From: Candidatus Xenobium occultum
GTDB lineage: Bacteria > Vulcanimicrobiota > Xenobia > Xenobiales > Xenobiaceae
Assembly (NCBI GenBank): GCA_002423485.1
Contig: DIWH01000011.1
Location: forward strand, 72,667 to 136,666
Length of the DNA: 64,000 nt
Direction of reading: 5' to 3'
A model generated the notes under the pieces. That model saw only the letters and a program-made list of their open reading frames with translations. It was not told the DNA's origin and ran no database searches. Shown here piece after piece: positions 2,263-62,783 of this stretch. Each line of letters starts with the position of its first letter. The stretch's first letter is position 1. The position numbers and the translations under genes are program-made.

Positions 2263-2282
2263 ACCGGGAATCGGAGACGAGC

Positions 2283-4391: not shown

Positions 4392-4569
4392 GGCTATCGG
4401 CCGGCCGCTCCCGAGAAGGCTCCCGGATCCCCCGGTCGGCCCGGGGGATGACCTGAACCATGCCTTGGAGCGGGTTCGAAACGAGTTTGAAAGCCTCCAG
4501 GCGCGCTGGGAGGTCTTCCAGACGATGCCAGGGGAAGAGGAAGGGTCCGAGGGGAGGAGGACCTCGTGA
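4381..4569 (+). CDS. possible small protein (62 aa), GTG start
   Basis: It fills the 175-nt gap between two coupled genes. GTG 4381 follows a GGAGGAGG-like tract. Its stop forms a GTGA overlap with the giant gene start at 4566. GC3 bias is moderate. Confidence 0.3.
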   Translation: MGSEAIGRPLPRRLPDPPVGPGDDLNHALERVRNEFESLQARWEVFQTMPGEEEGSEGRRTS

Positions 4570-14093: not shown

Positions 14094-14520
14094 GGGGGTG
14101 CATTTCCACCGCGCCCCTGGAGAGGCCTGCCGAGACGAGGTCACGACTGGCAGCGCGGGTGTCTGCGAATCATGGATCCGGCTAAAAAATGCGCATGCAC
14201 CGGACAACGAGAAGGGTCGCCGGAGCGACCCTGGTGGTGGGCGGGCCTGAGACGGCTGCTTCCGGCCGGACGACTCCATTCTTGTTTCGGGCCGATCGAC
14301 GACAGGCGCTGACGCGTCTCAACTCCCGCCCAGATCATCCTGGCAGAATTGCCGTCGGGGAACATTGCCGGAACGTTGCCGACAGGACAAAGATGCAGAT
14401 GCGCTTTCCTGCCTGGGTGCACATGCAAGAATCTCCCAGGAACGGGTCATGGTCTCGAGGTCTGAAGACCCCTTCGACGGAGCCAATCCGGACTCGCGCC
14501 GACCGGTCCCCTGAGAAATC

Positions 14521-37409: not shown

Positions 37410-38369
37410 TCAGTTGAACTCGTCGGGGTCGGTGAAGGGCCGAGCCAGGGTCTGGCACAGGCGCTGAAGGAAACCTCCCTCCTCTTTGAGGGGACGCAGT
37501 CGGCGTGGAGAGAGCGCCTTGAGGTGGGCCAGCATGTCCTTCATCTCAAGATAGCGCTGAGTCGGGTCGACATCGGTGGCCACTTTCACGATGCCGGCGA
37601 AATCCTCGCTGATCGCCGGATTGACCTGCGTGCACGGAGCAAAGACGCCCGGCTGGACGGTCGGGTCGTGGCCGGTCACCATCTGGTGCATCAGGACGCC
37701 CAAGGCATACACATCATTGGACCGGCCGATGACGGCCTCTGAACCGCACTGCTCGGGTGGTGCATAACCTCGAGTCCCCAGCCTGGGTTCCTCGGGTGAG
37801 CGAGGGGCCAGGAGCCGACCCAGGCCGAAATCCGTCAGGATGACATCGCCTCGCTGGGTCAACAAGACGTTATTGGGGTTGAGATCGGCGAAATAGAGCG
37901 GTGGCCGGTAGTTGTGCATCCAATCCAGGATGACGGCCGTCTTGACGGCCACATCGATGGCCTGGGATTCCAGGAAAGGCCTGTTCCGCATCGACATCAC
38001 TTCGCCCAGCCGATGCCCCGGGACGTAGTCGAAGACCACGTACTCGGCCCCGTTCTCGAAGAAATAATCCTTCAGGGTTGTCAAGCCGGGGTGCTGGACC
38101 TCGACGTAGGGAGCCGCAACCTTCCGAAAGTAGTCCATGACCTCCCGATGCGCATCCGAGCCCTGACCGCCCTCCGCCCGAACCTCCTTGATGGCGTACT
38201 TGCGCTCGGAGCTGTGCAGGGAGACGGCCAGATACAGATTGCTGTAGTCATAGCACTCCAGCATCTTCACCAGCTTGTATTCTCCCTGGAGGATCGGCTT
38301 GCGCTCGGGCTCCATCGTCATGCCTCCCTGCGATGATGTTCGTTGGCCATCTTCATGTTTCGGATTCAT
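37410..38369 (-). CDS. protein kinase-like protein with degenerate catalytic loop (probable pseudokinase/atypical kinase)
   Basis: YAIKEV (beta3 Lys) and DFG are present, but HRDLKPxN is replaced by FADLNPNN and there is no Gly-rich loop. Noticeably lower GC than its neighbours. Confidence 0.65.
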   Translation of the reverse strand: MNPKHEDGQRTSSQGGMTMEPERKPILQGEYKLVKMLECYDYSNLYLAVSLHSSERKYAIKEVRAEGGQGSDAHREVMDYFRKVAAPYVEVQHPGLTTLKDYFFENGAEYVVFDYVPGHRLGEVMSMRNRPFLESQAIDVAVKTAVILDWMHNYRPPLYFADLNPNNVLLTQRGDVILTDFGLGRLLAPRSPEEPRLGTRGYAPPEQCGSEAVIGRSNDVYALGVLMHQMVTGHDPTVQPGVFAPCTQVNPAISEDFAGIVKVATDVDPTQRYLEMKDMLAHLKALSPRRLRPLKEEGGFLQRLCQTLARPFTDPDEFN

Positions 38370-45782: not shown

Positions 45783-45855
45783 CGTTTGAGGCTCCTTGTA
45801 TGACCATCCGGGAGAACACCGCCCGGATCAGGGCAACTGCCCGGGCGGGAGGGGC

Positions 45856-48066
45856 TCAGAGCTGCTCGGCAAACGAGCGGGCCAGCGCCTCGACGTTCTT
45901 GCGCTCGTCCTCGTCGCTGATGGCGTCCATGTAGACGTGCATGGCCCCGTCCACGAAGGTCTGCTTGTTGTCGGCGGCCTCGGGGCCGAAGACCTTCATG
46001 AACTTCGAGAAGGCCTTCAGGTCGCGCAGGGTGTAAACGAACCCATCCTTCCGGGCGGAGGCCAGGTCCCCGCTTTCGACCTTCGAACGGATGTCGTAGT
46101 GGAACTTGACCATCTGCTCGGCGATCTTGTCGCCCCCCTCCACCTTCTTCATCCAGCCGGCCACGATGGTCGTCGTCTCGCCGACATCGGTCAGCTCGGG
46201 GAACCACTGCTCGGTGAAGCGGTTGCGCATGGCCAGGGAGAGGTCGCGCCGGCCCGCGTACTGGGACGTGGCCGGGTTCATGGTGGCGAAGACCCGGAAA
46301 TTCGGATCCGCCTCGACCTTCTCGCCGTTGTGCTCGGTCAGCACGATGGCACGGTCGTCGTCCAGAAGCGAATTGAGACGCTCGAGGATGGAGGGCTCGG
46401 CCAGGTTGATCTCGTCGAGGACCACCCAGTCGCCATTCTTCATGGCGGTGATCAGGGTGCCGTCCCGCCAGGTGTACTCGCCCGGCTTGGGTCTGCCGGT
46501 GGTCGGGTCCGTGGCCGGAACGTAGCCGCCGATCAACTCGGAGGTGTCCGTCTGCAAGCTGAGGTTGAAGCGGTGCAGGTTCCGGTTGTCCAGGTGGGCC
46601 AGATAGCGCACGTAGGACGTCTTGCCGGAAGCCGTCGGGCCGACCAGCAGGACCGGCTCGTCCAGGGCCGCCGACTTGGCCAGGCGCGTCAGCTTCTGCA
46701 CCGTGGAGGGCGTGTTGAAGAGCCGAGCCGACTCGTCGGGGACCAGCGTCCCTCCCTCGCCTTTGTCCAGGACCGCCTCGCCAATACGGACCTGCTGGGG
46801 CTGTTCCTCGACCGTGATGTCGAGATCGCGGGTCGGGGGCTCGTTGGCTTTGCCGAAGGTCAGGGCCAGGACGTCATCCACCACCTGGCGATCGTCGTCG
46901 TTGATGAAGCGAGCCTGGTAGACCTCTCGAGCCTCCTTCCAGAGGATCTGTTCGGTGCTCAACCCGGAGGTGGCGAACTTCTCGACCCGCTTGTTCCACT
47001 TCAAGACGTCCCGCAGCGTGAAGGGATAGGGGCCACCCTTCTTGCCGATCTGGCGGTGCTCGGACATGTCCGCCATCTGCTTGTGGAACATGACCATCTG
47101 AAGGACGGTCTTCTCGGGCAGCTTGGACTTGGCCTGGATGATCTCGACCATCTCCTCAGGCTTCATGCCCTCGACCCAGGTCTTGTGGAAGCGGTTCATC
47201 ATCGCCGCCGAGAGCTCTTTGCGACCCGCGTAGGAGGCCGGGTTCATGGTCGCAAAGATTCGGGTACTCTCGTCAGCTCGGACAATCTCGGGGCCCTTGT
47301 CGCCGGCGCCCTTCTCGGTCAGGACCAGGAAACGGTCGTCGTCCAGCAGCGAGTTGAGCCGCTCGAGGATGGCCGGTTCGGCCAGGTTGATCTCGTCGAA
47401 GAGGATCCACTGCCCCTGCTTGAGGGCCTCGACCACCACGCCGTCGTGCCACTCCGGGCGGCCATCCTGCCCCGGCTTGTAGCCCCCGACGATCTCGACC
47501 ACATCGGTCATGTCGTTGAGGTTGATCCGGCGCAGCTCGTTGTTGGTCAGATGGGCCAGGTACTTGACCAGCGACGTCTTGCCTGCTCCGGTGGGGCCGG
47601 TCATGAGGACGTTTTCGTTCAGCTTGACCGAGCGGGCCAGCTTCTCGAGGTTCTTGACCGTGGTCGGGGTGTGGATCAACCTCGACCTCTCGTCGGGAAC
47701 CCAGGAGTGGGCCTTGGAAGCGGACGGCGCCTCCTGGGACGTGGTCGCGCTGGCCTGGGCCACCGGGACGCCAGGCTCATCCACAGGCTGAGCCGGAGGC
47801 TCTTCCAGGAAGAGGGTCTCGGGCACTCCCTGCGACCGCGGTGGCGCGGAAGCGCCGGCCGGCACACTCGCCTGTGCCGCCTGCGAGCCGGCAGCGGAAA
47901 TCGCCGGGGCGGCTGCTGAGCCAGGGCTGACATGACCGGCAGCGGGGTTCAACTGGACCGAGTCCTGGGCGCTGGGAACCGATATTCCGGGTTCCGGGGC
48001 CACCCGGCGGGCGCCGGGAAGCGGCGTCTGCGCGCTCTGACCGGGCTGAACCTTGATGCTGTCCAT
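45856..48066 (-). CDS. tandem AAA_5 (MoxR/dynein-related) ATPase, two complete AAA modules
   Basis: Two Walker A motifs (GPTGAGKTS, GPTASGKTS). Two Walker B motifs (ILFDEINLAEP, VVLDEINLAEP). Duplicated ILERLNSLLDDDR and TMNPA motifs. ATG 48066 is 6 nt after GGGAGGA. Confidence 0.8.
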   Translation of the reverse strand: MDSIKVQPGQSAQTPLPGARRVAPEPGISVPSAQDSVQLNPAAGHVSPGSAAAPAISAAGSQAAQASVPAGASAPPRSQGVPETLFLEEPPAQPVDEPGVPVAQASATTSQEAPSASKAHSWVPDERSRLIHTPTTVKNLEKLARSVKLNENVLMTGPTGAGKTSLVKYLAHLTNNELRRINLNDMTDVVEIVGGYKPGQDGRPEWHDGVVVEALKQGQWILFDEINLAEPAILERLNSLLDDDRFLVLTEKGAGDKGPEIVRADESTRIFATMNPASYAGRKELSAAMMNRFHKTWVEGMKPEEMVEIIQAKSKLPEKTVLQMVMFHKQMADMSEHRQIGKKGGPYPFTLRDVLKWNKRVEKFATSGLSTEQILWKEAREVYQARFINDDDRQVVDDVLALTFGKANEPPTRDLDITVEEQPQQVRIGEAVLDKGEGGTLVPDESARLFNTPSTVQKLTRLAKSAALDEPVLLVGPTASGKTSYVRYLAHLDNRNLHRFNLSLQTDTSELIGGYVPATDPTTGRPKPGEYTWRDGTLITAMKNGDWVVLDEINLAEPSILERLNSLLDDDRAIVLTEHNGEKVEADPNFRVFATMNPATSQYAGRRDLSLAMRNRFTEQWFPELTDVGETTTIVAGWMKKVEGGDKIAEQMVKFHYDIRSKVESGDLASARKDGFVYTLRDLKAFSKFMKVFGPEAADNKQTFVDGAMHVYMDAISDEDERKNVEALARSFAEQL

Positions 48067-48234
48067 GTGAGTCCTCCCTGGAAGACCTGCCGGGAGCCCG
48101 GAATCCTGTCGACGAAATCCAGAAGGCAGACCGGCATGGTTGGGCCTGTTTGATCCTTCCAAAGATAGCCTTCCCGTCTCCCAACCGTCCAATGCCAGGA
48201 TGATAACATCCCGACAGGTCAGGAGTTCCCCGAA

Positions 48235-49115: not shown

Positions 49116-49988
49116 TCAGGGTCTGGGGTTTCGAGATCGATGCCGACGACGTCGGGAAAGCAGGAGGCGTGCCAGCCAGTGCCGAGTCTGCCGGGTCCGT
49201 GCCTCCAGCGCCTCCCTCATCACGGCAGCCGACTCCGGGCGCCGCGCGGGGTCCACGTCGAGGCAGCGGCTCAACAGGTCCTCCATCTCCAAGGAAAGCG
49301 CCGGATTGAACTCCCGCGCCGGTGGGAAGGCAAAGCCAAAGGGCTGAGGATCCCGGGCCGTGAGGAGCTCGAAGAGGGTGGCGCCGAGCGCGTACAGATC
49401 CGAGCGGGTCTCGGCGCGGCCCTGGTACTGCTCGGGCGGCGCGTATCCCGGCGTCCCGTAGGCCGTGGTGTCCCCGGGTCGGCCTGGACGCATCGGACGC
49501 GCGATTCCGAAGTCCACCAGCTTCAGTGGACCACGGACCGAGACCATCACGTTCGACGGCTTGAGATCGCGGTAGACCACCGGCGGTCTCAGGCCGTGCA
49601 GGTAGCCCAGGACCTCGCAGATCTGCACCCCCCAGGAGGCCACCAGGGCTTCTTCCAGAGGTTCGGCACGGCTGCGCAGGACGTCCGCCAGGGTCGGCCC
49701 TTCGACCCTCTCCATCACCAGGAATTCGCGACCATCCTGGGTGAACCGGTGCAGGACCCGAGGCAGCGATGGATGGCGCAGGCGAAGCAGGATGCCGGCC
49801 TCCCGCTCGAAGAGCTCGAGGGCTTCGGGCCGGTCTGCCGGACAGATGGCCCGGAAGTCCAACTCCTTGACGGCCCAGACACGCCCTCGCTCGCGCGTGT
49901 CTCGGGCCAGCCAGACCCGACTCGAAGCGCCCTCCCCCAGAAGGCGTTCGACCCGATAGCGCCCCGCCAGCAGGATGCCTGGTTCCAC
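49116..49988 (-). CDS. Ser/Thr protein kinase (catalytic domain only)
   Basis: GTG 49988 starts immediately after the ABC gene TAG. AVKEL, YRDLKPSNVMV, VDFGIA and APE motifs are all intact. Confidence 0.7.
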   Translation of the reverse strand: MEPGILLAGRYRVERLLGEGASSRVWLARDTRERGRVWAVKELDFRAICPADRPEALELFEREAGILLRLRHPSLPRVLHRFTQDGREFLVMERVEGPTLADVLRSRAEPLEEALVASWGVQICEVLGYLHGLRPPVVYRDLKPSNVMVSVRGPLKLVDFGIARPMRPGRPGDTTAYGTPGYAPPEQYQGRAETRSDLYALGATLFELLTARDPQPFGFAFPPAREFNPALSLEMEDLLSRCLDVDPARRPESAAVMREALEARTRQTRHWLARLLLSRRRRHRSRNPRP

Positions 49989-49990
49989 GC

Positions 49991-51076
49991 CTACTCCAGG
50001 TCGATCCCCTCGGTCATGCGGAGGTAGACCTCCTGGAGATCCCAGGCCTCGTCCGCGAAGCTGACCACGGGGAAGCCCTTCTCGAAGAGCAAGCGGTTCA
50101 GCTTCGCCAGTTCCCTGTCCTCCCCGGCGAACTCCAGGACCAGTTGTTCCTCCTGCCAGGCGACCGAACGGACGCCGGGAGTTCCCTCCAGAAAGAGCCG
50201 ACACTCCTCTCCCCTCTCCAGCAGCCGGACCCGCACCCTGCGGGTCCCACGCAACCGGGAGACCACCTGACGGGTCTCGCCGAAGAGCAGGAGCTGCCCT
50301 TTGGCGAGAATCCCGACCTTGTTGCAGAAATCAGCCAGGTCCGAGAGGATGTGGGAGGAGACGATCAGGGTCTTGCCCCTCTTCTGCAGCCCCTTGAGGA
50401 TGTCGGCCAGTTCGACCCGCGCCCGAGGATCCAGACCGGCTGCGGGTTCGTCCAGAAGGAACAGGGCGGGATCGTGCATCAGCAGACGAGCCAGACCCAG
50501 GCGCTGCTTCTGCCCCCGAGAGAGGCCTTCCACCGGATTCTCGGCCAGGCGGGTCAACCGGGTGGTCTCCAAGGCCTCGGCGATCACGAAGTCCCGATGA
50601 TGGGCGGGCACCTTGTAGGCGCGGGCGAAGAACTCGAGGTATTCCCGAACCAGGAGATCGTCGTAGACGCCCAGGAAATCGGGCATGAACCCGACCCGGG
50701 CGCGCACCTCGGCCACCTGTTTCAACGAGAAGCCGGCGATGCGGGCCTCCCCGGCATCGGGGGCCAGGACGGTGGCCAACATCCGCAGGGTCGTCGTCTT
50801 GCCTGCCCCGTTGGGGCCCAGGAAGCCGAAGATGTCCCCAGGGTAGAGCTTCAAGGACAATTCGTTGACGGCCAGGGTCGAACCGTAGCTCTTGGTCAGC
50901 CCCCGGACCTCCAGGACCGGCTCCACTCCGGGCGAGGGCTCCTCCAACGTGCGCGGGTGGGGGTCGGGACCGGGTGCAGACCAGCGCGGGACCGAGTCTT
51001 CCTCGGGGCGCGGGGTTCGGACGGGGCCGGCGCCTTCGGGCTCGAGGTGGCGGGTCTGGGGATCGATCTGGCTCAT
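49991..51076 (-). CDS. ABC transporter ATP-binding protein with Pro-rich N-terminal extension; no adjacent permease
   Basis: Walker A GPNGAGKTT, signature LSRGQKQRL, Walker B LFLLDEP. ATG 51076 overlaps the upstream TGA (ATGA). Confidence 0.75.
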   Translation of the reverse strand: MSQIDPQTRHLEPEGAGPVRTPRPEEDSVPRWSAPGPDPHPRTLEEPSPGVEPVLEVRGLTKSYGSTLAVNELSLKLYPGDIFGFLGPNGAGKTTTLRMLATVLAPDAGEARIAGFSLKQVAEVRARVGFMPDFLGVYDDLLVREYLEFFARAYKVPAHHRDFVIAEALETTRLTRLAENPVEGLSRGQKQRLGLARLLMHDPALFLLDEPAAGLDPRARVELADILKGLQKRGKTLIVSSHILSDLADFCNKVGILAKGQLLLFGETRQVVSRLRGTRRVRVRLLERGEECRLFLEGTPGVRSVAWQEEQLVLEFAGEDRELAKLNRLLFEKGFPVVSFADEAWDLQEVYLRMTEGIDLE

Positions 51077-54083: not shown

Positions 54084-55007
54084 TCATGGGCAGTCCGGCA
54101 ATTCCAACTCCAGGCCTTCCCAGGCTCCCAGGATCTGGGGTGGAGCCTCGTAGCCGGAAACCCGTTCCCGACACGACTCGAGCATCCCATCCAGGAACTC
54201 GTCCTCATGGTCGGGATCGTGATGGAACATGACGTAACGACGGACCTCGGCCGCCAGGGCCACGTCCGTGGCGAAGTCGCATGGGCTGTGCCCCCACCCC
54301 CGGCGTGAGACATACTCCTCGGGGGTGTACATGGAATCCTGGATATACAGGTCTGCCCCACGGGCAAAAGAAACCAGGCGGGCGTTCTCCCGATGAAGGA
54401 TGGCCTCCCGCATGGCGGACCGGTCCCGGAGCAGACGTCCCGAATCCCGACGGTCCACGCGCAGCAGCCTGCCCAGGTGGGGCTCCACGTCGGTGCAGTG
54501 GACCAGGACCTGGCCATCAGCCTCGATCCGATAGCCCAGACACAGCACGGTGTGGTTCAAGAACTGGGTGGTGATGCGGACGTCGCCGATCCGGAACCTT
54601 TCCTCAACCAGTTCGCGGAACTGAAGCTGGCCGGTCATCGACTCGAGGTGGTAGGGAGCATTGGTGAAGGCCAGTTGGCCTTCCAGCAGATCCCGGATCG
54701 AGCGCTTGGGCTCCTTGGGGGCCCAGACGCAGACCCGATTCCCTGGTTCGTGGGCCGGACCGAAGAAGGGCAGCCCCTGGATGTGGTCCCAGTGGGTGTG
54801 CGTGAGCAGGATGTGGGCCTGGAGAGGCCGGGGCTCCGTGTCCTGCAGGTGGCGGCCCAGTGGGAAGAGGCCGGACCCTGCATCCAGGATCAACAACGTC
54901 CCGTCCGCAGTACGGACCTCGACGCACAGGGTGTTGCCCCCATAGTGCACGGTGCCCGGCCCCGGCGTCGGAATCGAGCCTCGAGTGCCCCAGAACCGGA
55001 CCTTCAC
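54084..55007 (-). CDS. MBL-fold metallo-hydrolase
   Basis: HTHWDH zinc-binding motif with surrounding beta-lactamase-fold signatures. Confidence 0.7.
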   Translation of the reverse strand: MKVRFWGTRGSIPTPGPGTVHYGGNTLCVEVRTADGTLLILDAGSGLFPLGRHLQDTEPRPLQAHILLTHTHWDHIQGLPFFGPAHEPGNRVCVWAPKEPKRSIRDLLEGQLAFTNAPYHLESMTGQLQFRELVEERFRIGDVRITTQFLNHTVLCLGYRIEADGQVLVHCTDVEPHLGRLLRVDRRDSGRLLRDRSAMREAILHRENARLVSFARGADLYIQDSMYTPEEYVSRRGWGHSPCDFATDVALAAEVRRYVMFHHDPDHEDEFLDGMLESCRERVSGYEAPPQILGAWEGLELELPDCP

Positions 55008-55077: not shown

Positions 55078-56490
55078 TCACAGGAAGCGCAGGCGGGTGT
55101 TGCCTGCCTGGAGCTCGTCGCCTCGATGCAGCTCCACCTTTCGGCTCAGGCGATGCCGGTTCACCCAGGTCCCGTTGGTCGAATTCAAATCCTCCACCCA
55201 ATAGGTCCCCTCCTCCAGGAAGAGACGCGCGTGGGAGTGGGAGACCGCCGTATCCTGAGGCAGCACGAGGTCGCCCTCCTCCCGACCGATGAGCACGGGC
55301 TGCCCCGTCAGGACCAGGTCGAGGCCCTCCTCCTCCGAGAACAACCGCCACTGCCCAGGAGTGACCGGCGGCAGGGCGGGAGGCGGCGTGGGGGTGGACT
55401 GAACAGGGGGATCGACGTGTCGTGGGGCTTCCTCGGCAGTGACCTCGCGAGTCTTCGGCGAGACGGAAGCGACCGCAGAAGAGGTCCCCTTCTGCACGCC
55501 CAGGCGTTCCAGGAGAGGAAGATGGTCCGGGGACTCTGCCCGGACAGCCTGGAACTCCTGCTCGGCATCCCGAGTCCATCCCTCCTGGGCCAGGGCCTCG
55601 CCCAGGGAATAGCGCAAATCGAGCCGCAGAAGCGGATCCAGGCCCTGGCGCCCAAGAGCCTTGCGGTACAGTTCGGTGGCCGTCAAAGTATCGCCCAGGC
55701 CCTCACAGGCCTTCCCCAGCAGAAGCAGATCGGCCACGTGAATGTTCGAGTCGGGCAGGAAGTCCTTCAAGTCGTCCACGGCCTGGCGGAACTCACCCGC
55801 CTCCAGGTGGAAGACGCCTTTGAAGAACAGGGCCATGGGCTCGGCCGGCATGACTCCCAACAGTTGGGCCAGGGTCGCCAGGCCGTCATCCGGACGGCCG
55901 CTGGCCCTCTGGGCCAGGGCCAGAAGGAGGTTGAGGCCCAGAAGATCCGCCCCCATGCTGAAGAAGGAGGTCCGGGTCAGGGGCAGGGTCATCCTGAAGG
56001 AAGGGAGATACCTGCGGATCTTCTGCCCCAGTCCCTGCTGGCACAGGAGGGCCTTCTGGAAGGTGCGCACCGCCTGGACCGGATTCCCAGTCTCGCTCTC
56101 CAGGCAGCCCATCAGGAGGTAGGCGTCGGTGAACTGGGCGTCCCGCGCCACCGCGTCCCGCAAGCGTTCCAGGGCGGCTGGAAGGTTCCCCAGCACCAGA
56201 TCCGAGCAGGCCTGCACGAAGGCACGCTCCGCCCGGGACATGGTCAGGTTCTTGACCATCCCCACCCCAAAGCGGGCCCCGTGCTGAGGTTCAAAGATCT
56301 CCAGGACGGGGCACAGCCCCTTCCCAGGCAGGATGGAGGGGCGACGCCAGTACAGACCACTGTCGGTCCCTGCCGAGCCGTCCTCACGCCCCTTGAACAG
56401 GCCCGAGACCTCTCCGATCCCCTTGCCGGCCAGCTTGCCGGCCAGCCCGAGGCCACCCTTCAAGCTGCCCAGGATGTCGGACTGTTCCAT
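55078..56490 (-). CDS. TPR-repeat protein with C-terminal FHA domain
   Basis: The C-terminus (GQPVLIGREEGDLVLPQDTAVSHSHARLF...NSTNGTWVN) matches the FHA fold signature (G-R...S-xx-H...N-G). TPR units upstream. Confidence 0.7.
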   Translation of the reverse strand: MEQSDILGSLKGGLGLAGKLAGKGIGEVSGLFKGREDGSAGTDSGLYWRRPSILPGKGLCPVLEIFEPQHGARFGVGMVKNLTMSRAERAFVQACSDLVLGNLPAALERLRDAVARDAQFTDAYLLMGCLESETGNPVQAVRTFQKALLCQQGLGQKIRRYLPSFRMTLPLTRTSFFSMGADLLGLNLLLALAQRASGRPDDGLATLAQLLGVMPAEPMALFFKGVFHLEAGEFRQAVDDLKDFLPDSNIHVADLLLLGKACEGLGDTLTATELYRKALGRQGLDPLLRLDLRYSLGEALAQEGWTRDAEQEFQAVRAESPDHLPLLERLGVQKGTSSAVASVSPKTREVTAEEAPRHVDPPVQSTPTPPPALPPVTPGQWRLFSEEEGLDLVLTGQPVLIGREEGDLVLPQDTAVSHSHARLFLEEGTYWVEDLNSTNGTWVNRHRLSRKVELHRGDELQAGNTRLRFL

Positions 56491-56525
56491 CTGGTGCCTC
56501 CTGGTGGGCCGATGCCCTCGAGAAC

Positions 56526-57254
56526 TCAGACGAGGAAGACCATCTCGGTCTTGCCCAGGCGCAGCCGGTCCCCCTCGCGGATCTCGGCCTGGACCCCGGA
56601 GGTCAGGCGGTTCCCGTTCAGGAAGGAGCCGTTGGAGGAACCCACGTCCTCATAGAGGAGCCTCCCCTCCTGGCGAACGATGCGGCCGTGCCGGCGCGAG
56701 ACGTAGGACTCGGTGTCGGCCTCGGTCAGGTCGACCTCGGGGAAGATCGAGTCGGCCGGAGACCGGCGCCCCAGGGCCACGACGTCGCGGTCCAACGGGA
56801 ACTCGCCTCCCCCGTCCACCAGCGAGAGCCGGGGGCGGGCCGAGATCGTCGGTGCGGGCGTTTCGGCTGCGACGGGGACCGGAACCACCGGGAGCGGAGG
56901 CGCGGCCTCGGCCCGAGCGGCCGTCAGGCTGGCTCCGCAGTCCTCGCAATAGGCCTCATAGGAGGGATTCTCGGCCCCGCAAGCGGCGCAGCGGACAGTG
57001 CCCGAGACGGCCTCGACGGTGGGGATCGGAGCAGGTGGGGCTGCCTGCGGCAGCGGAGCGGGGACAGGCTCGGGCACGGGGGCGGGAAGAGAGGCCGGAG
57101 CAGGCTGGGGAGCGGCAAGCGGCACCGCCGGCGCCTCCTGGGTGACGGCGGGCATGCCCTGGGGAAGCCGAGCTCCGCAATCCTCGCAGTAGGCGGAACC
57201 TTCGAGATTCTCCGAACCGCAGACACTGCACTTCATGGACGTTCTCCTTTTCAC
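56526..57254 (-). CDS. double zinc-ribbon + FHA domain protein
   Basis: CSVCGSEN...CEDCG and CAACGAEN...CEDCG ribbons with a Pro/Ala-rich linker. The C-terminal FHA (...VALGRRSPAD...SRRHGRI...SSNGSFLN). Confidence 0.7.
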   Translation of the reverse strand: MKRRTSMKCSVCGSENLEGSAYCEDCGARLPQGMPAVTQEAPAVPLAAPQPAPASLPAPVPEPVPAPLPQAAPPAPIPTVEAVSGTVRCAACGAENPSYEAYCEDCGASLTAARAEAAPPLPVVPVPVAAETPAPTISARPRLSLVDGGGEFPLDRDVVALGRRSPADSIFPEVDLTEADTESYVSRRHGRIVRQEGRLLYEDVGSSNGSFLNGNRLTSGVQAEIREGDRLRLGKTEMVFLV

Positions 57255-57287
57255 ATCGCGTTGAGGCCGCGTCGAAGCGGCCGGAAT

Positions 57288-58592
57288 TCATTCCTGCCCG
57301 ACGACCGGCGCGCGCATCGCCTCGAGGGGCGGGACCGTGTCCAGCAACTGGGTCAACTTGCGGGTTCCGTACTCCAGCTTCTTGGTTCCGGCCGAGGTGG
57401 CGGCGGCGCCCTGCTCGATCCGAGTCGCCTCGGCCAGGGCCTGGTCGGCCAGGTCCTTCTGACCCTGCTGGAGGAGTTGGGTGGCCGCCGAGCGCAGCAA
57501 CTGGGTCGCCTTGGACCGGTCTCCAGCCTGGGCCAGTTCCAGCGCCCGCGTCTGCTGGCGGAAGACGCTGACCGCATCGATGACCTGCATCACCCGCGGG
57601 GTAACCCTCGAGGCCTGGTTGGGATCCGAGGTATAGGCAATCGTGATGTCCGAGGAGACCGTCGAGCTGGGGGCAGGCTGTCCCGGCATGTCGTAGGAGA
57701 GGGAAGCCTGGGCGATCCGGTAGGTCCCGGACTGGCGCGAAGGAAGGACCAGCTCGAAGAGCAGCGACTGGGTCTCCTCCTTCTGCAGATCCGTCAAACG
57801 GATGCTGCAGGTGCGGTCGATGACGGGCACGGCCCCCAGGTCGTTGATCAGCGGCTTGACCTTGTAGGCCCTGCGGACGTTCACATCCTTGGCCAGCTTG
57901 AGGCGGATCTCGGGGTTCCGGACCACCACGTTCTGGACCCCTCGCAGCTCACCTTCGAAGATGGAGGGGATGTCCCGAGGCATGTCGATGTAGTAGGAGG
58001 TTCCTCGACACGAGTTGGCGATATCCAGAAGGAGCTTCTCGTTGAAATCGTCGCCGACCCCGATGGTCGAAACCGAGATGCCCTCCTCGGTCGCCAGGAT
58101 GCACTTCTCCTTGCAGCGCGCCTCGTGAAGCGTCAGTCCGTCGGTCAGGAGGATGATGTGGTTCATCCGGTCGCGCGAGAAGTTGCGTCGAACCTCCTCC
58201 ACCGCCGCGTTGATCCCGTGCAGCATCTCGGTCCCGGACCCCACGTCGATCTGGTCGATCTTGCGGACCATCTGCCGCGCCGAGTTCTTGTCGTAGATCT
58301 GGCTGGACGGAATCAACACTCGGGCCTTGTCGGCGAAGGCGATCAAGGCACACAGGTCGTTGGGACGCAACTGCTCGATCACGTGGCTGACCGCATTGAT
58401 CACGTAATCGAGCTTCTGCGCGGCGTACATCGAGCCGCTCTTGTCCAGAACGATGGCCAGGTTCAAGGCCGCGGGACCGCTGCCGATCTCGGGCCCGGGC
58501 CGGACATCCGCCAGCAGGTACACGAGCTTGCTCTCGCTGGTGGTCATCACGGCCTGATAGCTCAGGTAGGTTACGAGATTGACTTCGGCCAC
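57288..58592 (-). CDS. vWA-domain protein
   Basis: LAIVLDKSGSM (MIDAS) ... ILLTDGL. GTG 58592 is 6 nt after GGAGGAA. Confidence 0.65.
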   Translation of the reverse strand: MAEVNLVTYLSYQAVMTTSESKLVYLLADVRPGPEIGSGPAALNLAIVLDKSGSMYAAQKLDYVINAVSHVIEQLRPNDLCALIAFADKARVLIPSSQIYDKNSARQMVRKIDQIDVGSGTEMLHGINAAVEEVRRNFSRDRMNHIILLTDGLTLHEARCKEKCILATEEGISVSTIGVGDDFNEKLLLDIANSCRGTSYYIDMPRDIPSIFEGELRGVQNVVVRNPEIRLKLAKDVNVRRAYKVKPLINDLGAVPVIDRTCSIRLTDLQKEETQSLLFELVLPSRQSGTYRIAQASLSYDMPGQPAPSSTVSSDITIAYTSDPNQASRVTPRVMQVIDAVSVFRQQTRALELAQAGDRSKATQLLRSAATQLLQQGQKDLADQALAEATRIEQGAAATSAGTKKLEYGTRKLTQLLDTVPPLEAMRAPVVGQE

Positions 58593-58676
58593 GTCGTTTC
58601 CTCCACTATGGTTGGGACCCCAGAAATGAGGGCCTGCACTCGCCCCGGGGTGGCTCCGGAGGCGCACTCTTCCCGT

Positions 58677-60452
58677 TCAATCGGGCCGACTCCTCGTGGG
58701 TTCGGATGAAGCGGGACGGCGCACCACCGCCAGCGTCGCGTTGTCATCTGCGCCGCGCTGCAGGCAGGTCGCCACCAGGCGCTCGCACAGAGCCGCTGGC
58801 GCGGGTGCCCCCTGGAAGAACTCCAGCAATTCCTCGTCGCTGTAGTACTCCCAGATTCCATCCGAACAGACCAGCAGATACTCCCCGGGAGCCAGGCGCC
58901 GCTCATACAGATCCACCTCGACCTCGGGGTTGGTTCCCAGGGCCCGGTAGATCACGCTGCGTCGGGGAGAGCGACGAGCCTCTTCACGGGTCAGGTGCCC
59001 CATCTGCACCAGGCTGCCCACCAGTGAGTGGTCGGTGGTGACCTGATCAAGCTCGGAGCCGATCCGGAAGGCCCTGGTATCCCCCACATGGGCAAAGACC
59101 GCCAGATCCCCCTCCAAGAGCACCGCCGTCATGGTGCAGCCCATTCCCTGACGCGATGGGTCCAGGCTGGCATATTGGTAGATGGTCCGATTGGCCCGTT
59201 CCAGTGCACGCTTGAGGATCAGGCCATTGCGCTGGGCGGGGTCCCCAGGCAGCAGCAGCGAGGTCTCCAGGCCGACCTGGCAGGTCAAGAAGCGCTCGAC
59301 GATCTCGTGGGCCAGGGCCCGGATGGCCAGGGACGCCGCCTTGTCCCCCTCGGCCTCTCCTCCCATCCCATCCGCGACCACCACCAGGTGGGCCTGCATC
59401 GGAACATCCCGCTCACAAGCCCCAAGTCGACACTCCAGCCAGGCATCCTGGTTGATCCGGCGGACCAGGCCGATATGGGACTTCGTGGCCACTTCGAACC
59501 CCAGGTCGGCCCCGGAACCCTCAGGCGGCGACCCCGGCGATTCCGAGTCACTTGGGGGTTCATCGCCCAGGTGCTCGCGCGCCTGTTCCAAGGCCTCACG
59601 CATCTGGGCAGCGGACTCAAAACGGCGATCGGGCTTGCGCTCGACGGCTTGGAGGATGACTTCGACCACGGGTCCGGCCCCGGGCACCTGGGGGCGCGGA
59701 AAGAAGAAGAAGCTCTCGCGGGCTTCCAGGTTCATCCGCTCAGCGGTCAACGCCGAGTACAGGACCGCACCCAGGCTGTAGAGATCCGAGCGACGGTCGG
59801 GAACCCCTCCTTCCATGCCGTAGGCCTCGGGCGAAGAGTACCCCTGGATCACCGAATACTCCTCCCAGGGTTCCTCCAGGCGGCGGGCCCGCTCACAGCG
59901 GACCAGCAAGGGCGCCCCCTCGGAGCCGATCCAGATGGCCTCCGGGCTCAGTCCCCCGTGGAGCCATCCGGCCTGGTGCAAAGCCTCCAGCGCCCCCAGC
60001 AGGGCCTCGCCCAGTCGGGCCACCTGTTCGGCGGGCAGGGCGCCGCCGGCCAGGTGCTGCTGAAGGGATTCCAGACCGGGCCAGGGCCCGATCAGGTAAC
60101 CCCGACCTTCGTGCTCCAGGCGCTCGACAGGGAGCCAGAGGGTCTCGTGCTGAACGGCGGTCAGCAGGTCCCATTGCCGGGACCAGGCCGGGCCGGCGTC
60201 TGGGAATTCCAGAACCAGGACGCGATCCTCACCCGATTCCAGGGGATGGGCCTCATAGAGGTGGACTCCCCCGCCTGTTTCAACCACCCGCTCGATCACG
60301 TACCGATCCGCGATCTTCTGACCGGGGTCCAGCGGAGACCCGGGCTGCACATCGGCCGCCTCGGGCTCCCCCTCCACCTGCAGAAAGGCTCCGCACTCAT
60401 CGCAGAATCGGGAGTCGGCCGGGTTCTCACAGGCACAGGATGGACAGAGCAT
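58677..60452 (-). CDS. zinc-ribbon + pseudokinase + PP2C-type Ser/Thr phosphatase fusion
   Basis: ATG 60452 is 5 nt after GAGGAGG. N-terminal CPSCACEN...CDECG. The kinase-like domain lacks VAIK and the HRD Asp (HGGLSPEA). The C-terminal PPM carries metal-binding motifs VADGMGG, GDTRAF, CSDGIW and GADDNATLAVV. Confidence 0.7.
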   Translation of the reverse strand: MLCPSCACENPADSRFCDECGAFLQVEGEPEAADVQPGSPLDPGQKIADRYVIERVVETGGGVHLYEAHPLESGEDRVLVLEFPDAGPAWSRQWDLLTAVQHETLWLPVERLEHEGRGYLIGPWPGLESLQQHLAGGALPAEQVARLGEALLGALEALHQAGWLHGGLSPEAIWIGSEGAPLLVRCERARRLEEPWEEYSVIQGYSSPEAYGMEGGVPDRRSDLYSLGAVLYSALTAERMNLEARESFFFFPRPQVPGAGPVVEVILQAVERKPDRRFESAAQMREALEQAREHLGDEPPSDSESPGSPPEGSGADLGFEVATKSHIGLVRRINQDAWLECRLGACERDVPMQAHLVVVADGMGGEAEGDKAASLAIRALAHEIVERFLTCQVGLETSLLLPGDPAQRNGLILKRALERANRTIYQYASLDPSRQGMGCTMTAVLLEGDLAVFAHVGDTRAFRIGSELDQVTTDHSLVGSLVQMGHLTREEARRSPRRSVIYRALGTNPEVEVDLYERRLAPGEYLLVCSDGIWEYYSDEELLEFFQGAPAPAALCERLVATCLQRGADDNATLAVVRRPASSEPTRSRPD

Positions 60453-60475
60453 GGGACCTCCTCGAAAAGTGCGGA

Positions 60476-61867
60476 TCACCGGGCGGTGAGCCCGGACCGG
60501 GTCACCCAGAACCACAAGGCCCAGCCCCCCGTGCTGGAGACCAGGCTCAAGAGACTGGCCGAAATCACGAAAATCCAGAGGGGAGCGCGCTCGTGGCGCG
60601 GGGTTGAAAACAGGATCACCCAAAGCAGACCCGCTGTCACCAACCCCGCCCCGGGCACGATGGCCCCCAGGGTCAACAGGAAGGCCAGGGGCATCGCCCA
60701 GCAGCCCACCCGAGCCGGCTCGACCTCGACCTCCAGGCCCAGACGCTCGCTGCCGAGGCCGCTCTCGTAGAGAAGAGAACCGGTGTGGCGTCCCCCCATG
60801 CCCAGGCGCGCCGTCTGAACCGTGACCTCCAGGGGAACATCCCGGCCCTGGACCTTCCCCGGAGAGACCTGAATCCAGGGGTCGCTGGCCTTCACGGTGC
60901 CGTCCACCGCACCGCGCAGCAGGACCTGCGAGCGGACCGTCGCTCCGTGGCGATGGCGCCCCAGCTCCAGACGCTCGGGTTCGAACCGGTTGAAGGGAGG
61001 TGGCGGCAGAGGGCCTGTCCGGAGACGCTCGGGAAGCTTGGCAAAGGCCTCGGGGAGGTGGCGCATCTCCTCCAGGGCGCGACGAAAGGCTGCTGCGTCG
61101 GGGAACCGGTCCTCGGGAGAAAGGGCCACGGCGCGGGCCACGATGGCCTCCAAGGCCTCGGGCACCTCGGGATTCAGGGTCCGCAAGGGGGCGAAGCGGA
61201 AGGGTTCCTGCGAAGGGTCCACCCCGCTCAGGGCTTCATGGAGGGTGGCGCCAAGTGCATACAGATCCGTGCGGGCATCTGACTGTCCGCGCCCGTACTG
61301 TTCGGGAGCTGCGTAGCCCGGAGTGCCCAGGGCCCTGGTATCCGAGGTCTTGCCGCTCTGGAAGAAGCGGGCGATGCCGAAGTCGATCAGGCGGGCCGTT
61401 CCGTCCGGCGAGAGGATCACGTTGGCGGGCTTGAGGTCTCGAAAGATCACTGGCCGAGGGTGTCCGTGCAGGTATTCCAGGACCTCGGCAATCTGCACCG
61501 CCACGTCCAAGGCCTCACCGACCGAAAGCCGCCCCCGCTTCCGAAGGACGCGCTCGAGGGTTTCTCCGTCGACAAAGTCCATGACCAGGTACTGCCTGCC
61601 AGCCTCGATGAAGGAATCGGTGATCCGGGGCAGATTCACGTGCTTGAGCTGGGAGAGAAGCTCTGCCTCGGACTTGAAGGCTTCCAGGGCCTCGGCGCGT
61701 TCAGCCGGGTCGCTGAAGGTGTCGGTCATCTCCTTGATGGCCCAGGACTGCCGGGGCAGCCGGGAATCGCTGACCAGGTAGACGGCACCCATCCCGCCCT
61801 CGCCCAGGATCCGCTCCACCCTGTAGCGGCCTGAGAGAACCTGTCCGACTCCCAGCCTGGCTGTCAT
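60476..61867 (-). CDS. Ser/Thr protein kinase with C-terminal membrane anchor (2-3 TM helices)
   Basis: ATG 61867. WAIKEM, FRDLKPANVIL, IDFGIARF and APEQ motifs intact. The C-terminus has hydrophobic helices LAFLLTLGAIVPGAGLVTAGLLWVILF and IFVISASLLSLVSS. Confidence 0.75.
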   Translation of the reverse strand: MTARLGVGQVLSGRYRVERILGEGGMGAVYLVSDSRLPRQSWAIKEMTDTFSDPAERAEALEAFKSEAELLSQLKHVNLPRITDSFIEAGRQYLVMDFVDGETLERVLRKRGRLSVGEALDVAVQIAEVLEYLHGHPRPVIFRDLKPANVILSPDGTARLIDFGIARFFQSGKTSDTRALGTPGYAAPEQYGRGQSDARTDLYALGATLHEALSGVDPSQEPFRFAPLRTLNPEVPEALEAIVARAVALSPEDRFPDAAAFRRALEEMRHLPEAFAKLPERLRTGPLPPPPFNRFEPERLELGRHRHGATVRSQVLLRGAVDGTVKASDPWIQVSPGKVQGRDVPLEVTVQTARLGMGGRHTGSLLYESGLGSERLGLEVEVEPARVGCWAMPLAFLLTLGAIVPGAGLVTAGLLWVILFSTPRHERAPLWIFVISASLLSLVSSTGGWALWFWVTRSGLTAR

Positions 61868-62039
61868 CCTGCTTGGACCCCTCTCCTGGACCCGCTGACT
61901 CCCGCGATTCGGGGCCATCCCGGCCTGCAGACCGGAGAAGGTAGCTTCCGCCTGAAGCCCGGGGCTCCTCCAAAGAAGGATCTAGGGGCCCGGTCGGAAA
62001 CCTCTCGGCGATGCTCGGTCGAGGTTTCCGACCGGGTTC

Positions 62040-62783
62040 CTAGACGCAGAACCCGACCCAGGACAGCAGGGCCAGGCTCGCCAGCAGGCCACGGCTCATG
62101 GCGACCAGGACGGCCCGGGTGCGGTCGTGCACACCCAGCTTCCGGAAGATGTTCTTCAAGTGGTTGGCGACGGTGAATTCGCTGATCGAGAGCCTCTGGG
62201 CCACCTCGCGATTGGAGCCTCCCTCCTGGATCCCGCGCAGCACCTGCACCTCCCGCGTCGAGAGCAGACTCGACGTCGATTGCGGTGCGTTCTGGGTGGA
62301 GAGGGCGGACAGACCATCGGCCGAACCGCTCGGGTTCTGCGTCAGGACCTCCAACAGGCGCTTGCCCAGGAAGGCTTCCAGGAGGCTTCCCTCCCGGCGG
62401 ACCCGGCGAAGGCTGTCCACGAGTTCCCTGGGTCCCAGCTCTTTGGGCAGATAGGCACAGGCCCCTGCCTGGACGGCCTCCAGAATTGAAGACAAATCAC
62501 CTTGCCCCGTCAACAGGACAACCTGGACCTCCGGGAATCTCTGCAGGACCCGACGGCACAATTCAGTCCCGCTCATCTGGGGGAGGACCAGGTCCAAGAG
62601 CATCAGGTCCGGACGAGCCTCATCCAGAAGGTCCAGGGCCTCCTCTGCACTGCCGACCTGGGCCACGACCTGGAAGTCCCCAGCCCTCTCGACCATCAGG
62701 ACCAGGCCTTCCCTCAACAGCTCATAGTCCTCAACCACCATGACCCGCACCGGCGGGTCGGGGAAACCGGATTCTTGACTCAC
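62040..62783 (-). CDS. two-component response regulator, NarL/LuxR family (REC + HTH_LuxR)
   Basis: REC motifs VMVVEDYEL...LLDLVLPQMSG...KEL, and a C-terminal LuxR HTH ...REVAQRLSISEFTVANHLKNIFRKLGV. Confidence 0.8.
   Translation of the reverse strand: MSQESGFPDPPVRVMVVEDYELLREGLVLMVERAGDFQVVAQVGSAEEALDLLDEARPDLMLLDLVLPQMSGTELCRRVLQRFPEVQVVLLTGQGDLSSILEAVQAGACAYLPKELGPRELVDSLRRVRREGSLLEAFLGKRLLEVLTQNPSGSADGLSALSTQNAPQSTSSLLSTREVQVLRGIQEGGSNREVAQRLSISEFTVANHLKNIFRKLGVHDRTRAVLVAMSRGLLASLALLSWVGFCV

Follow-up and report, generated by a model that had tools for sequence, protein, structure and literature searches.

The 64,000-nt stretch of Candidatus Xenobium occultum DNA analysed here (contig DIWH01000011.1, positions 72,667 to 136,666; hereafter the window) carries on its minus strand five adjacent genes that appear to form a real and conserved threonine-phosphorylation cassette. 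From upstream to downstream the genes encode a Hanks-type Ser/Thr kinase (STK), a 591-amino-acid (aa) protein in which a zinc ribbon (ZnR) and a pseudokinase domain (PsK) precede a PP2C phosphatase, a vWA protein, a ZnR-FHA protein and a TPR-FHA protein. We think it reasonably likely that the core of this cassette is a cytoplasmic phospho-switch of the ArnA/ArnB type, with a dedicated kinase as its writer and a phosphatase tethered by a pseudokinase as its eraser.

Six open reading frames (ORFs) with a third-position GC content of 0.79-0.88 lie between positions 55078 and 62783, all on the minus strand, and Pfam assigned to all six the domains that the original prediction had named. The kinase gene spans 60476..61918 (Pkinase, 2.3e-40), and the gene for the ZnR-PsK-PP2C fusion, identified with Pfam and NCBIfam, spans 58677..60452. 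They are followed by the vWA ORF (57288..58667, Pfam vWA), the ZnR-FHA ORF (56526..57254, two zinc ribbons and FHA in Pfam) and the TPR-FHA gene (55078..56490, TPR and FHA in Pfam). No NCBIfam model reached its cutoff for any cassette protein. Alignment with relatives, whose vWA proteins open with MAEVNL, placed the start of the vWA gene at a GTG at 58592, giving a protein of 434 aa, and that of the ZnR-FHA gene at an ATG at 57236. The true start of the kinase gene is probably the ATG at 61867. With the revised starts, the four gaps between the cassette genes are 23, 84, 51 and 35 nt, in agreement with the short spacing originally described; the description did not hold for the gap between the sixth gene, a regulator, and the kinase gene, which is 172 nt. 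The strong ribosome-binding sites described earlier were found as well. GAGGAGG at 60457..60463 lies 4 nt ahead of the ATG of the fusion gene at 60452, and Shine-Dalgarno-like motifs stand before the vWA (GGAGGA), ZnR-FHA (AAGGAG) and TPR-FHA (AGGAGG) genes, so clear motifs precede four of the five genes downstream of the regulator. A promoter scan gave no promoter-like site, and a terminator scan gave matches only inside coding regions and at the chance rate; both were uninformative for operon structure.

GTDB species genomes were scanned with an alignment of the vWA protein, and the resulting 80 loci were surveyed with phmmer and sorted into Groups A, B and C. The order STK, ZnR-PsK-PP2C, vWA, ZnR-FHA, TPR-FHA was found in L003, L004 and L005 and on the P0038 contig, examined as loci that encode relatives of the fusion, and in L010, L012, L014 and L015 of Group A. 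The proteins of these loci are 43-73% (fusion) and 57-90% (vWA) identical to those of the window; the fusion is 45% identical in L003, 73% in L004, 43% in L005 and 48% on the P0038 contig, and the flanks differ. Because the gene order recurs despite this divergence, the cassette goes beyond chance. Protein names and titles of metagenome-assembled genomes (MAGs) for the cassette relatives point to Vulcanimicrobiota/Eremiobacterota. In Group A, whose vWA proteins are at least 57% identical to that of the window, the MAG titles name Vulcanimicrobiota or Xenobia or carry seemingly inconsistent labels. Near-identical cassette proteins in L010, L015 and P0008/P0127 are filed under MAG labels such as Burkholderiales, Selenomonadaceae and Nitrosotenuis, and these are probably mis-binned or mislabelled Vulcanimicrobiota contigs. 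Exceptions to the full set within Group A are L008, which lacks the TPR-FHA gene, and L011, which lacks the kinase and the fusion.

Group B (Chloroflexota and Nitrospiria, vWA 34-43% identical) has a long ZnR-PP2C gene followed by the vWA and ZnR-FHA genes, together with one or more kinases. In one Anaerolineaceae locus of this kind (L009:3170-4075, contig of L018), a Pol-beta nucleotidyltransferase/HEPN pair lies between the vWA and FHA genes. The vWA and ZnR-FHA genes are adjacent in all Group A and B loci whose contig runs beyond the vWA gene, and the pair is kept in Chloroflexota, Nitrospiria, Deinococcus radiodurans and Tolypothrix, in most cases accompanied by a long PP2C and at least one STK. 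By this comparison the vWA and ZnR-FHA pair is the deepest conserved unit. Group C loci (vWA 25-32% identical), which carry no FHA, PP2C or STK genes, were set aside as a different vWA family; in this group, which spans many phyla (L026-L089), a response-regulator gene often lies 1.5-2.5 kb downstream on the same strand.

The NarL/LuxR-type response regulator (62040..62783, Pfam REC and GerE/LuxR) had originally been counted with the cluster. Only the close relatives L004 and L010 have it next to the cassette; its slot is taken by unrelated genes in L003, L005, L012, L014 and L015. It was hence rejected as a member, leaving a conserved cassette of five genes.

The vWA protein links the cassette to ArnB. 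ArnB combines a vWA domain with a beta-sandwich and a four-helix bundle and carries phosphothreonines on its C-terminal helices, and ArnA consists of a zinc finger, which contacts the beta-sandwich and C-terminal domains of ArnB, and an FHA domain (PMC6509490, PMC7472852, PMC12852372). The AlphaFold2 (AF2) model of the window's vWA protein (pLDDT 89.4, pTM 0.85) likewise has three domains, predicted as vWA, beta-sandwich and helical bundle. Its best sequence matches among solved structures were 8s05_A and 5a8j (the ArnB paralogue vWA2 of Sulfolobus), followed by 4fx5, and the family profile matched 8s05_A with an E-value of 3.3e-20. With Foldseek, the first-ranked structure was 4fx5, an uncharacterised bacterial vWA protein of Catenulispora (TM-scores 0.76/0.78), and the second was 8s05_A from the ArnAB complex (TM-scores 0.65/0.73, E 2e-25); 5a8j (0.61/0.70) and then Sec23/24 came later. 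The match of the model to the ArnAB complex and to the ArnB paralogue spans all three domains. The metal-ion-dependent adhesion site (MIDAS, DxSxS...T...D) is intact, with D50, S52, S54, T121 and D151 invariant in 40 sequences. In largely the same lineages the vWA protein is 65-75% identical and the phosphatase 42-48%. This higher conservation fits a hub constrained by many partners.

The most suggestive feature of the vWA protein is its C-terminal tail (57342..57389, minus strand), which reads GT403KKLEYGT410RKLT414QLL and contains three TxxL motifs, candidate phospho-acceptor and FHA docking sites. FHA domains read position +3 after a phosphothreonine, and TxxL is a classic FHA ligand. The tail is nearly invariant in the 40 sequences, down to 37% identity, with Leu at +3 of all three Thr residues. 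The motif is also present in the vWA homologues of Chloroflexota and Nitrospiria, and the Deinococcus and Tolypothrix vWA proteins end in related T-x-K-x-[LVI] repeats. In the HMMER alignment the tail region lies opposite the ETTRRI...TRKI repeats of ArnB in 8s05_A. To judge from this alignment, the threonine tail echoes the phosphorylated C-terminus of ArnB.

The ZnR-FHA protein has the architecture of ArnA, with two zinc ribbons joined through a Pro/Ala-rich linker to an FHA domain in which the GR, SRRH and SSNG motifs are conserved. The best matches of its family profile in the Protein Data Bank (PDB) were ArnA itself (5a8i_A, 5.3e-17; 8s05_C, 1.2e-16), and the next FHA structure followed at 4e-11; the E-value for ArnA is about a million-fold better than that for any other FHA structure. 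The second proposed reader or adaptor, the TPR-FHA protein, combines a Gly-rich N-terminal motif with TPR repeats and an FHA domain whose GR, SxxH and TNG motifs are conserved, and was present only in Vulcanimicrobiota-type loci. Its N-terminal motif, L.GGLGLAGKL.GK...EV (56400-56490, minus strand), is kept in eight of eight orthologues and could be an amphipathic or docking segment.

Direct reading of the sequences showed that the ribbon of the fusion and both ribbons of the ZnR-FHA protein share the pattern CxxCxxEN(x5)[FY]C[ED][DE]CGAxL. An N-terminal ribbon is also found on the kinases of Deinococcus, Tolypothrix and L009. By analogy with the ArnA-ArnB structure, the zinc ribbon may be the handle that brings each enzyme and reader to the vWA scaffold.

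The proposed writer has all catalytic motifs of an active kinase (AIKE, FRDLKPAN, DFG and APE). Between its catalytic domain and a hydrophobic anchor at the C-terminus lies a conserved beta-rich middle domain, and alignment showed that the beta-rich region and the hydrophobic tail are kept in ten orthologues. The predicted anchor (60506..60709, minus strand), about three hydrophobic helices read by eye in the alignment, is consistent with the C-terminal membrane anchoring proposed earlier. There is no sizeable extracellular domain beside it, and Pfam gave no PASTA match.

The proposed eraser begins with a zinc ribbon (CPSC...CDEC, 60381..60452, minus strand; Pfam Zn_Ribbon_1/DZR) whose residues C3, C6, C17 and C20 are nearly invariant in the family. 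The middle part, residues 45-295 (59568..60320), matched Pkinase weakly (27 bits, under the Pfam cutoff). The AF2 model of the fusion, built with 42 family sequences (pLDDT 85.5), shows a complete kinase fold at residues 45-295, a disordered linker at 299-315 and then the PP2C domain. Foldseek placed the kinase-like part near PknB (TM-score about 0.8, 24% identity) and the PP2C part near PstP (TM-score 0.87). The PP2C catalytic domain, residues 319-580 (58713..59498), is intact in its metal-binding motifs: NQD, DGMGG, GDTR, SDG and DDN align with PstP and tPphA and are invariant in the family, including D336, D361, G362, D531, G532, D570 and N571. The NCBIfam model Stp1_PP2C scored 204 bits on the fusion. 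The joining of a PP2C to a zinc ribbon and a kinase-like domain, as originally described, is thus seen in both the Pfam domains and the model.

The kinase-like domain had been called a pseudokinase because it lacked the VAIK Lys and the HRD Asp, a claim that an intact set of catalytic residues would have overturned. Alignment with two true kinases of the window showed that all five catalytic residues are replaced, that is, also the alphaC Glu, the catalytic-loop Asn and the DFG Asp. VAIK is changed to VLVL, the alphaC Glu to Gln, HRDLKPxN to HGGLSPEA and DFG to RCE, and the Gly-rich loop has degenerated. The domain retains the SPE (APE) motif, the alphaF motif DLYSLG and the Arg of subdomain XI. 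At least two catalytic residues are missing in each of the 42 family members aligned. HRD survives only in P0102 and P0116, and the Lys additionally only in P0116; many members hold an Asp at the DFG position (D-x-[FW]-E-R). The positions that are at least 90% conserved are almost all in the C-lobe, with only one of 81 in the N-lobe, and they cluster at the end of the activation segment and the P+1 loop (V..G.S.PE.YG), at the alphaF Asp and at R277. Judged by these alignments, the conserved catalytically dead state is a stable family feature. A model after MviN, in which a pseudokinase Thr serves as FHA ligand, was discarded, since the pseudokinase has no conserved Thr.

The fusion family comprises 329 clusters (90% identity) at E<=1e-5, and about 115 of the 120 matches listed cover at least 90% of the query. 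Where named, the relatives are mostly Eremiobacterota, Xenobia, Vulcanimicrobiota and Bruticola. The pseudokinase domain alone found only six representatives at E<=1e-30 among 1.84 billion, the rest being mainly ordinary kinases, which marks it as a small divergent family by sequence. The next matches beyond the family (e.g., P0241) are very long proteins (about 900-2400 aa), each containing two to four kinase-like stretches. In L010:3557-5324, the closest relative from the genome scan (vWA 90% identical), the pseudokinase and PP2C are split over two overlapping frames by a frameshift, due either to misassembly or to decay into a pseudogene. Searches of the literature turned up no account of a pseudokinase-PP2C fusion in bacteria.

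Phosphatases of more distant cassettes carry what may be remnants of the same domain. On chromosome II of D. radiodurans, a vWA protein of 460 aa, an STK of 524 aa with a zinc ribbon, a protein with a zinc ribbon and an FHA domain, and a 616-aa PP2C are encoded together (DRA0331-0334). The N-terminal extension of the DRA0334 phosphatase was labelled 'KI-FHA' by its authors (bioRxiv 10.64898/2026.01.23.701218), and Pfam found no FHA domain in it. Residues 228-322 of DRA0334 (L090:11123-12973) match the pseudokinase C-lobe profile (independent E-value 3e-5 with Z set to 1000), with recognisable catalytic-loop-like, APE-like and alphaF-like stretches. A 616-aa PP2C of Tolypothrix aligns with the window's fusion from the SPE motif through the PP2C domain (27% identity over 388 columns) and has a weak Pkinase match. 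The Chloroflexota partner PP2Cs, of 520-610 aa (L017:8009-9811, L019:3381-5216, L023:5347-7017, L009:109-1677), have an N-terminal ribbon, a long acidic disordered linker and then an N-lobe-like segment (PGTVxxxRYxxxxxL..Y.A.D) that is interrupted by a second CxxC...CxxC ribbon. This segment may be a decayed kinase domain. The NCBIfam model PRK14559, 'serine/threonine phosphatase', matched the proteins of the window, Tolypothrix, Deinococcus and Chloroflexia below its cutoff, and only in their PP2C part. Modestly, these matches suggest one ancestral kinase-PP2C fusion that decayed to differing degrees.

On the basis of homology and conservation, we propose the following mechanism, in which we infer the interactions, the phosphorylation sites and the output. 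The three-domain vWA protein would be the scaffold. The ZnR-FHA protein would dock on it via its zinc ribbon(s), as the zinc finger of ArnA does on the beta-sandwich and C-terminal domains of ArnB. The membrane-anchored kinase would then phosphorylate the scaffold at T403, T410 and T414 of its C-terminal helices. The ZnR-FHA and TPR-FHA proteins would clamp the phosphothreonines with their FHA domains; the complex would pass from a loose arrangement to a tight or oligomeric one, and a client would be recruited by the TPR platform. The ZnR-PsK-PP2C protein would reset the switch. Its ribbon, of the same type as that of the reader, probably gives it access to the same scaffold, and its dead kinase domain, which keeps the P+1/APE part of the C-lobe, probably holds the kinase or the Thr tail beside the PP2C site. 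The docking role that the original prediction gave this domain is a reasonable possibility. The parts are competent for such a cycle, as both FHA domains have GR, SxxH and NG, the kinase has all catalytic motifs and the PP2C has all metal ligands. In Sulfolobus, the phosphorylated C-terminal helical domain of ArnB binds the FHA domain of ArnA and the zinc finger of ArnA binds ArnB (PMC6509490, PMC12852372); phosphorylation by ArnC turns the loose ArnAB complex tight, and PP2A reverses it (PMC6509490, PMC7472852, PMC12852372).

Several observations weigh against this mechanism. The identity between the vWA protein and ArnB is only 15-17%, and the sequence match outside the vWA domain is weak (the second HMMER domain has an independent E-value of 120), so that the link to ArnB rests mainly on fold, architecture and pairing. 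In the AF2 model T403, T410 and T414 sit in helices, and a conformational change would be needed for access by a kinase or an FHA domain. Sulfolobus uses PP2A, not PP2C, and its system has neither a pseudokinase nor a TPR-FHA protein. In addition, L001/L002 carry only the kinase and the fusion and L006 only the fusion, with the vWA and FHA genes not within 10 kb, and in L011 the vWA and FHA genes occur with neither kinase nor phosphatase. These partial sets indicate that the halves of the cassette are separable.

A wider reading is also possible, and we offer it tentatively as a rather doubtful extension of the ArnA/ArnB-type switch. ArnAB would belong, as one branch, to an ancient scaffold switch that is pan-prokaryotic, has a core architecture like that of Sec23/24 and uses the zinc ribbon as common handle. 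The reader, the eraser and, in other lineages, the writer would take turns on the vWA scaffold via the ribbon. In Vulcanimicrobiota the eraser would also have taken up a copy of a kinase and retained nothing but its substrate-binding lobe, and the phosphatase would then find the writer's TxxL tail or the kinase itself. The long PP2C extensions of Deinococcus (annotated KI-FHA), cyanobacteria and Chloroflexota would then be remnants of the same decayed kinase domain.

The original prediction had compared the cluster with control modules of secretion and cell-wall machines. Threonine-phosphorylation control of a secretion system or of the cell-wall/division machinery, as by PpkA/PppA/Fha1 or FhaA/FhaB/PstP/PknB, would account for the resemblance of the PP2C to PstP and PppA and for the matches of the FHA domains to the NCBIfam models FhaB/FipA and TagH. 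These matches are all below threshold (FhaB 43-69 bits against a cutoff of 125, TagH 39-43 against 120), as is that to PknB_PASTA_kin (212 against 450). PpkA likewise has a vWA domain (PMC1262709), whereas the vWA of the cassette is not part of the kinase; it is a separate cytoplasmic three-domain protein, structurally nearest to 4fx5 and ArnB and not to PpkA. SLT, rhomboid and PASTA genes lie 3-6 kb downstream of the cassette in L003 and on the P0038 contig, but the flanking genes vary by locus and no genes for a type VI secretion system (T6SS), nor rodA, pbpA or ftsW, were found around the window cassette or at any of the related loci. The kinase lacks PASTA repeats and any other extracellular domain, in contrast to the kinase expected of a FhaA-FhaB-PstP-RodA-PbpA-PknA-PknB cluster. 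Secretion, division and defence genes were not found among the window ORFs scanned, in line with the earlier remark that secretion genes are missing nearby. Control of such machinery is therefore unlikely, and the earlier comparison gives way to the closer likeness of the vWA and ZnR-FHA proteins to archaeal ArnB and ArnA and of the whole set to DRA0331-0334.

The vWA, PP2C and STK genes could also be a TerY-P-type triad serving in anti-phage or stress defence, with the FHA proteins as accessories. The triad, with a zinc ribbon in the set, fits the definition of TerY-P as quoted in PMC11090510 (after Anantharaman et al. 2012 and Gao et al. 2020), and Kaur et al. 2020 described actinobacterial sets of a kinase (bearing a zinc ribbon, a beta-rich domain or transmembrane helices), a PP2C and a standalone vWA protein. 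Related versions are found on secondary replicons in cyanobacteria and Deinococcus, one of them beside a TnsA-type gene, and the nucleotidyltransferase/HEPN pair described above is inserted in one relative. In the definition quoted in PMC11090510, the C-terminus of the TerY-P kinase is fused to a zinc ribbon or an OB fold; in the cassette, ribbons are carried by the phosphatase and the reader, the kinase ends in the beta-rich domain and hydrophobic helices with no zinc ribbon or OB fold, and FHA readers are present. The match to the Pfam vWA-TerF-like family (PF10138) was 24.0 bits against a cutoff of 29.4. The kinases match the PD-T4-6 models of PADLOC, as any Hanks kinase would, and the phosphatase matches only kinase models and PDC-M21C. 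The vWA and TPR-FHA proteins have no PADLOC match and the ZnR-FHA protein has one sub-threshold zinc-ribbon match, in a PADLOC copy in which the presence of TerY-P models is unconfirmed. No nuclease or other effector is present, nor a ter or defence context. The context is instead syntenic housekeeping (elongation factor P (EF-P), ketopantoate reductase (KPR), FtsH, ribonucleotide reductase (RNR)), and the recurrence of the cassette in many MAGs with Vulcanimicrobiota or Eremiobacterota names in their titles or proteins, together with a very conserved vWA protein, is unlike patchy, fast-evolving defence genes. We consider a defence triad distinctly unlikely.

Another concern is the pseudokinase itself, as ATP binding or catalysis persists in some pseudokinases despite missing motifs. 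A domain that binds nucleotide or has an atypical catalytic activity would make the eraser a bifunctional kinase/phosphatase. The HRD motifs of P0102 and P0116, the Lys of the latter and the Asp at the DFG position in many members point in this direction, and PP2C domains fused to active kinases, in the opposite order, were noted in Pseudomonas and Deinococcus in 2005. In the window protein, however, the five replacements are accompanied by a degenerate Gly-rich loop, the N-lobe is the least conserved folded part, and the Chloroflexota and Deinococcus relatives have reduced the domain to fragments. Together these observations suggest that catalysis was lost early, and we regard an active domain as very improbable. 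Finally, that the genes are mere neighbours that do not work together is hardly credible, since order and orientation are kept at about 45% protein identity with changing flanks, the gaps are short with Shine-Dalgarno motifs and the products fall into complementary classes (writer, eraser, two readers and a Thr-tailed scaffold), even though the halves lie apart in L001, L006 and L011.

The cassette of the window lies amid chromosomal housekeeping genes (EF-P, KPR, an ABC ATPase, FtsH, TilS and RNR), and the flanks, which vary between loci, give no functional clue. A metallo-beta-lactamase (MBL)-fold gene downstream (54084-55007) was rejected as a member, as it adjoins the cassette only in L004. 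The window encodes three more Hanks-type kinases, all on the minus strand, at 12846-14279, 37410-38369 and 49116-50204; the last is syntenic in L004 and is also close to the kinase-fusion pair of L001. About 7 kb from the cassette, at 43551-48192 on the minus strand, a 778-aa ATPase (AAA_5 and midasin-lid) precedes a 743-aa protein that has a vWA/CoxE-like domain at its C-terminus, i.e., a pair of a MoxR-type ATPase and a vWA protein. At 646-11978 on the plus strand there are three successive large ORFs (538, 702 and 2470 aa) with coding-like third-position GC and no Pfam match at 1e-5.

For most bacterial Hanks-kinase circuits a kinase and a phosphatase are known but not their wiring, and here the whole circuit would be contained in one conserved cassette. 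Because writer, eraser, two readers and a scaffold with a three-Thr tail are encoded together, the circuit is directly testable. The cassette joins three separate literatures, those on archaeal ArnAB motility control, on the Deinococcus DRA0331-0334 stress operon and on the vWA/PP2C/kinase triads. It is also a clear and deeply conserved case, from bacteria, of a pseudokinase joined to the enzyme that counteracts kinases, and its target would inform the basic biology of the little-studied Vulcanimicrobiota/Eremiobacterota.

Among known systems, parts of the cassette have several counterparts. Work attributed to Gee et al. in 2012 reportedly identified the mycobacterial MviN pseudokinase domain as the phospho-ligand of the FHA domain of FhaA. 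Like the fusion, MviN has a bacterial PknB-like pseudokinase domain within an STK/FHA circuit, but there the fusion partner is a lipid II flippase-like membrane protein and the domain itself serves as the FHA ligand. In Bacillus RsbU an N-terminal kinase-recruitment domain precedes the PP2C. Plant KAPP has been described as KI-FHA plus PP2C (bioRxiv 10.64898/2026.01.23.701218). The fusion resembles both in that the PP2C is preceded by a non-catalytic module, which in KAPP and RsbU selects the kinase or substrate; unlike theirs, the module here is a full kinase fold without catalysis, plus a zinc ribbon. The predicted scaffold and its reader resemble the Sec23/Sec24 COPII core, with a trunk (vWA), beta-barrel and helical domain and a zinc finger (TM-scores about 0.5-0.56 over 450-500 columns). 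The deposition title of 8s05 calls the ArnAB complex 'an archaeal ortholog of the Sec23/24 core motif', and the resemblance is discussed in PMC12852372. The cassette differs from Sec23/24 in having no gelsolin domain and in having the zinc ribbon on a separate protein, and the likeness is one of architecture that implies no coat function.

The DRA0331-0334 operon is similar in content, comprising a vWA protein, an STK anchored by transmembrane helices, a ZnR/FHA protein and a PP2C whose long N-terminal extension brings it to about 600 aa. Its vWA protein aligns over 96% of the query with 24% identity and has a TxKxL-type tail. The DRA0332 kinase is reported to have three C-terminal transmembrane helices, and the D. 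radiodurans FHA protein and long PP2C act antagonistically on STK phosphorylation (bioRxiv 10.64898/2026.01.23.701218), a functional precedent for the proposed switch. The operon differs from the cassette in its gene order (vWA-STK-FHA-PP2C), in the N-terminal ribbon on its kinase and in the lack of a TPR-FHA gene.

The genes for ArnA and ArnB of Sulfolobus acidocaldarius (5a8i, 5a8j, 8s05) are, like their counterparts here, an adjacent pair. The vWA protein shares with ArnB the three-domain layout, an intact MIDAS and a Thr-rich basic C-terminus, and the ZnR-FHA protein shares with ArnA an N-terminal zinc finger and a C-terminal FHA domain, though it has two ribbons. The archaeal pair is under Hanks-type kinases and a Ser/Thr phosphatase, and the cassette encodes the same enzyme classes. 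It differs from ArnA/ArnB in being bacterial and in having its kinase and phosphatase in the same cassette, and the archaellum, the target of the archaeal pair, is not expected in a bacterium. The ArnAB authors mention bacterial proteins of ArnB architecture; in the ArnAB papers that could be searched, bacterial ArnA/ArnB-like pairs with a kinase and a phosphatase are not described. ArnA was the best solved-structure relative of the ZnR-FHA protein, and ArnB was the second best of the vWA protein, after 4fx5. By these comparisons of sequence and predicted fold, the closest characterised relative of the cassette is ArnA/ArnB, followed by the Deinococcus operon.

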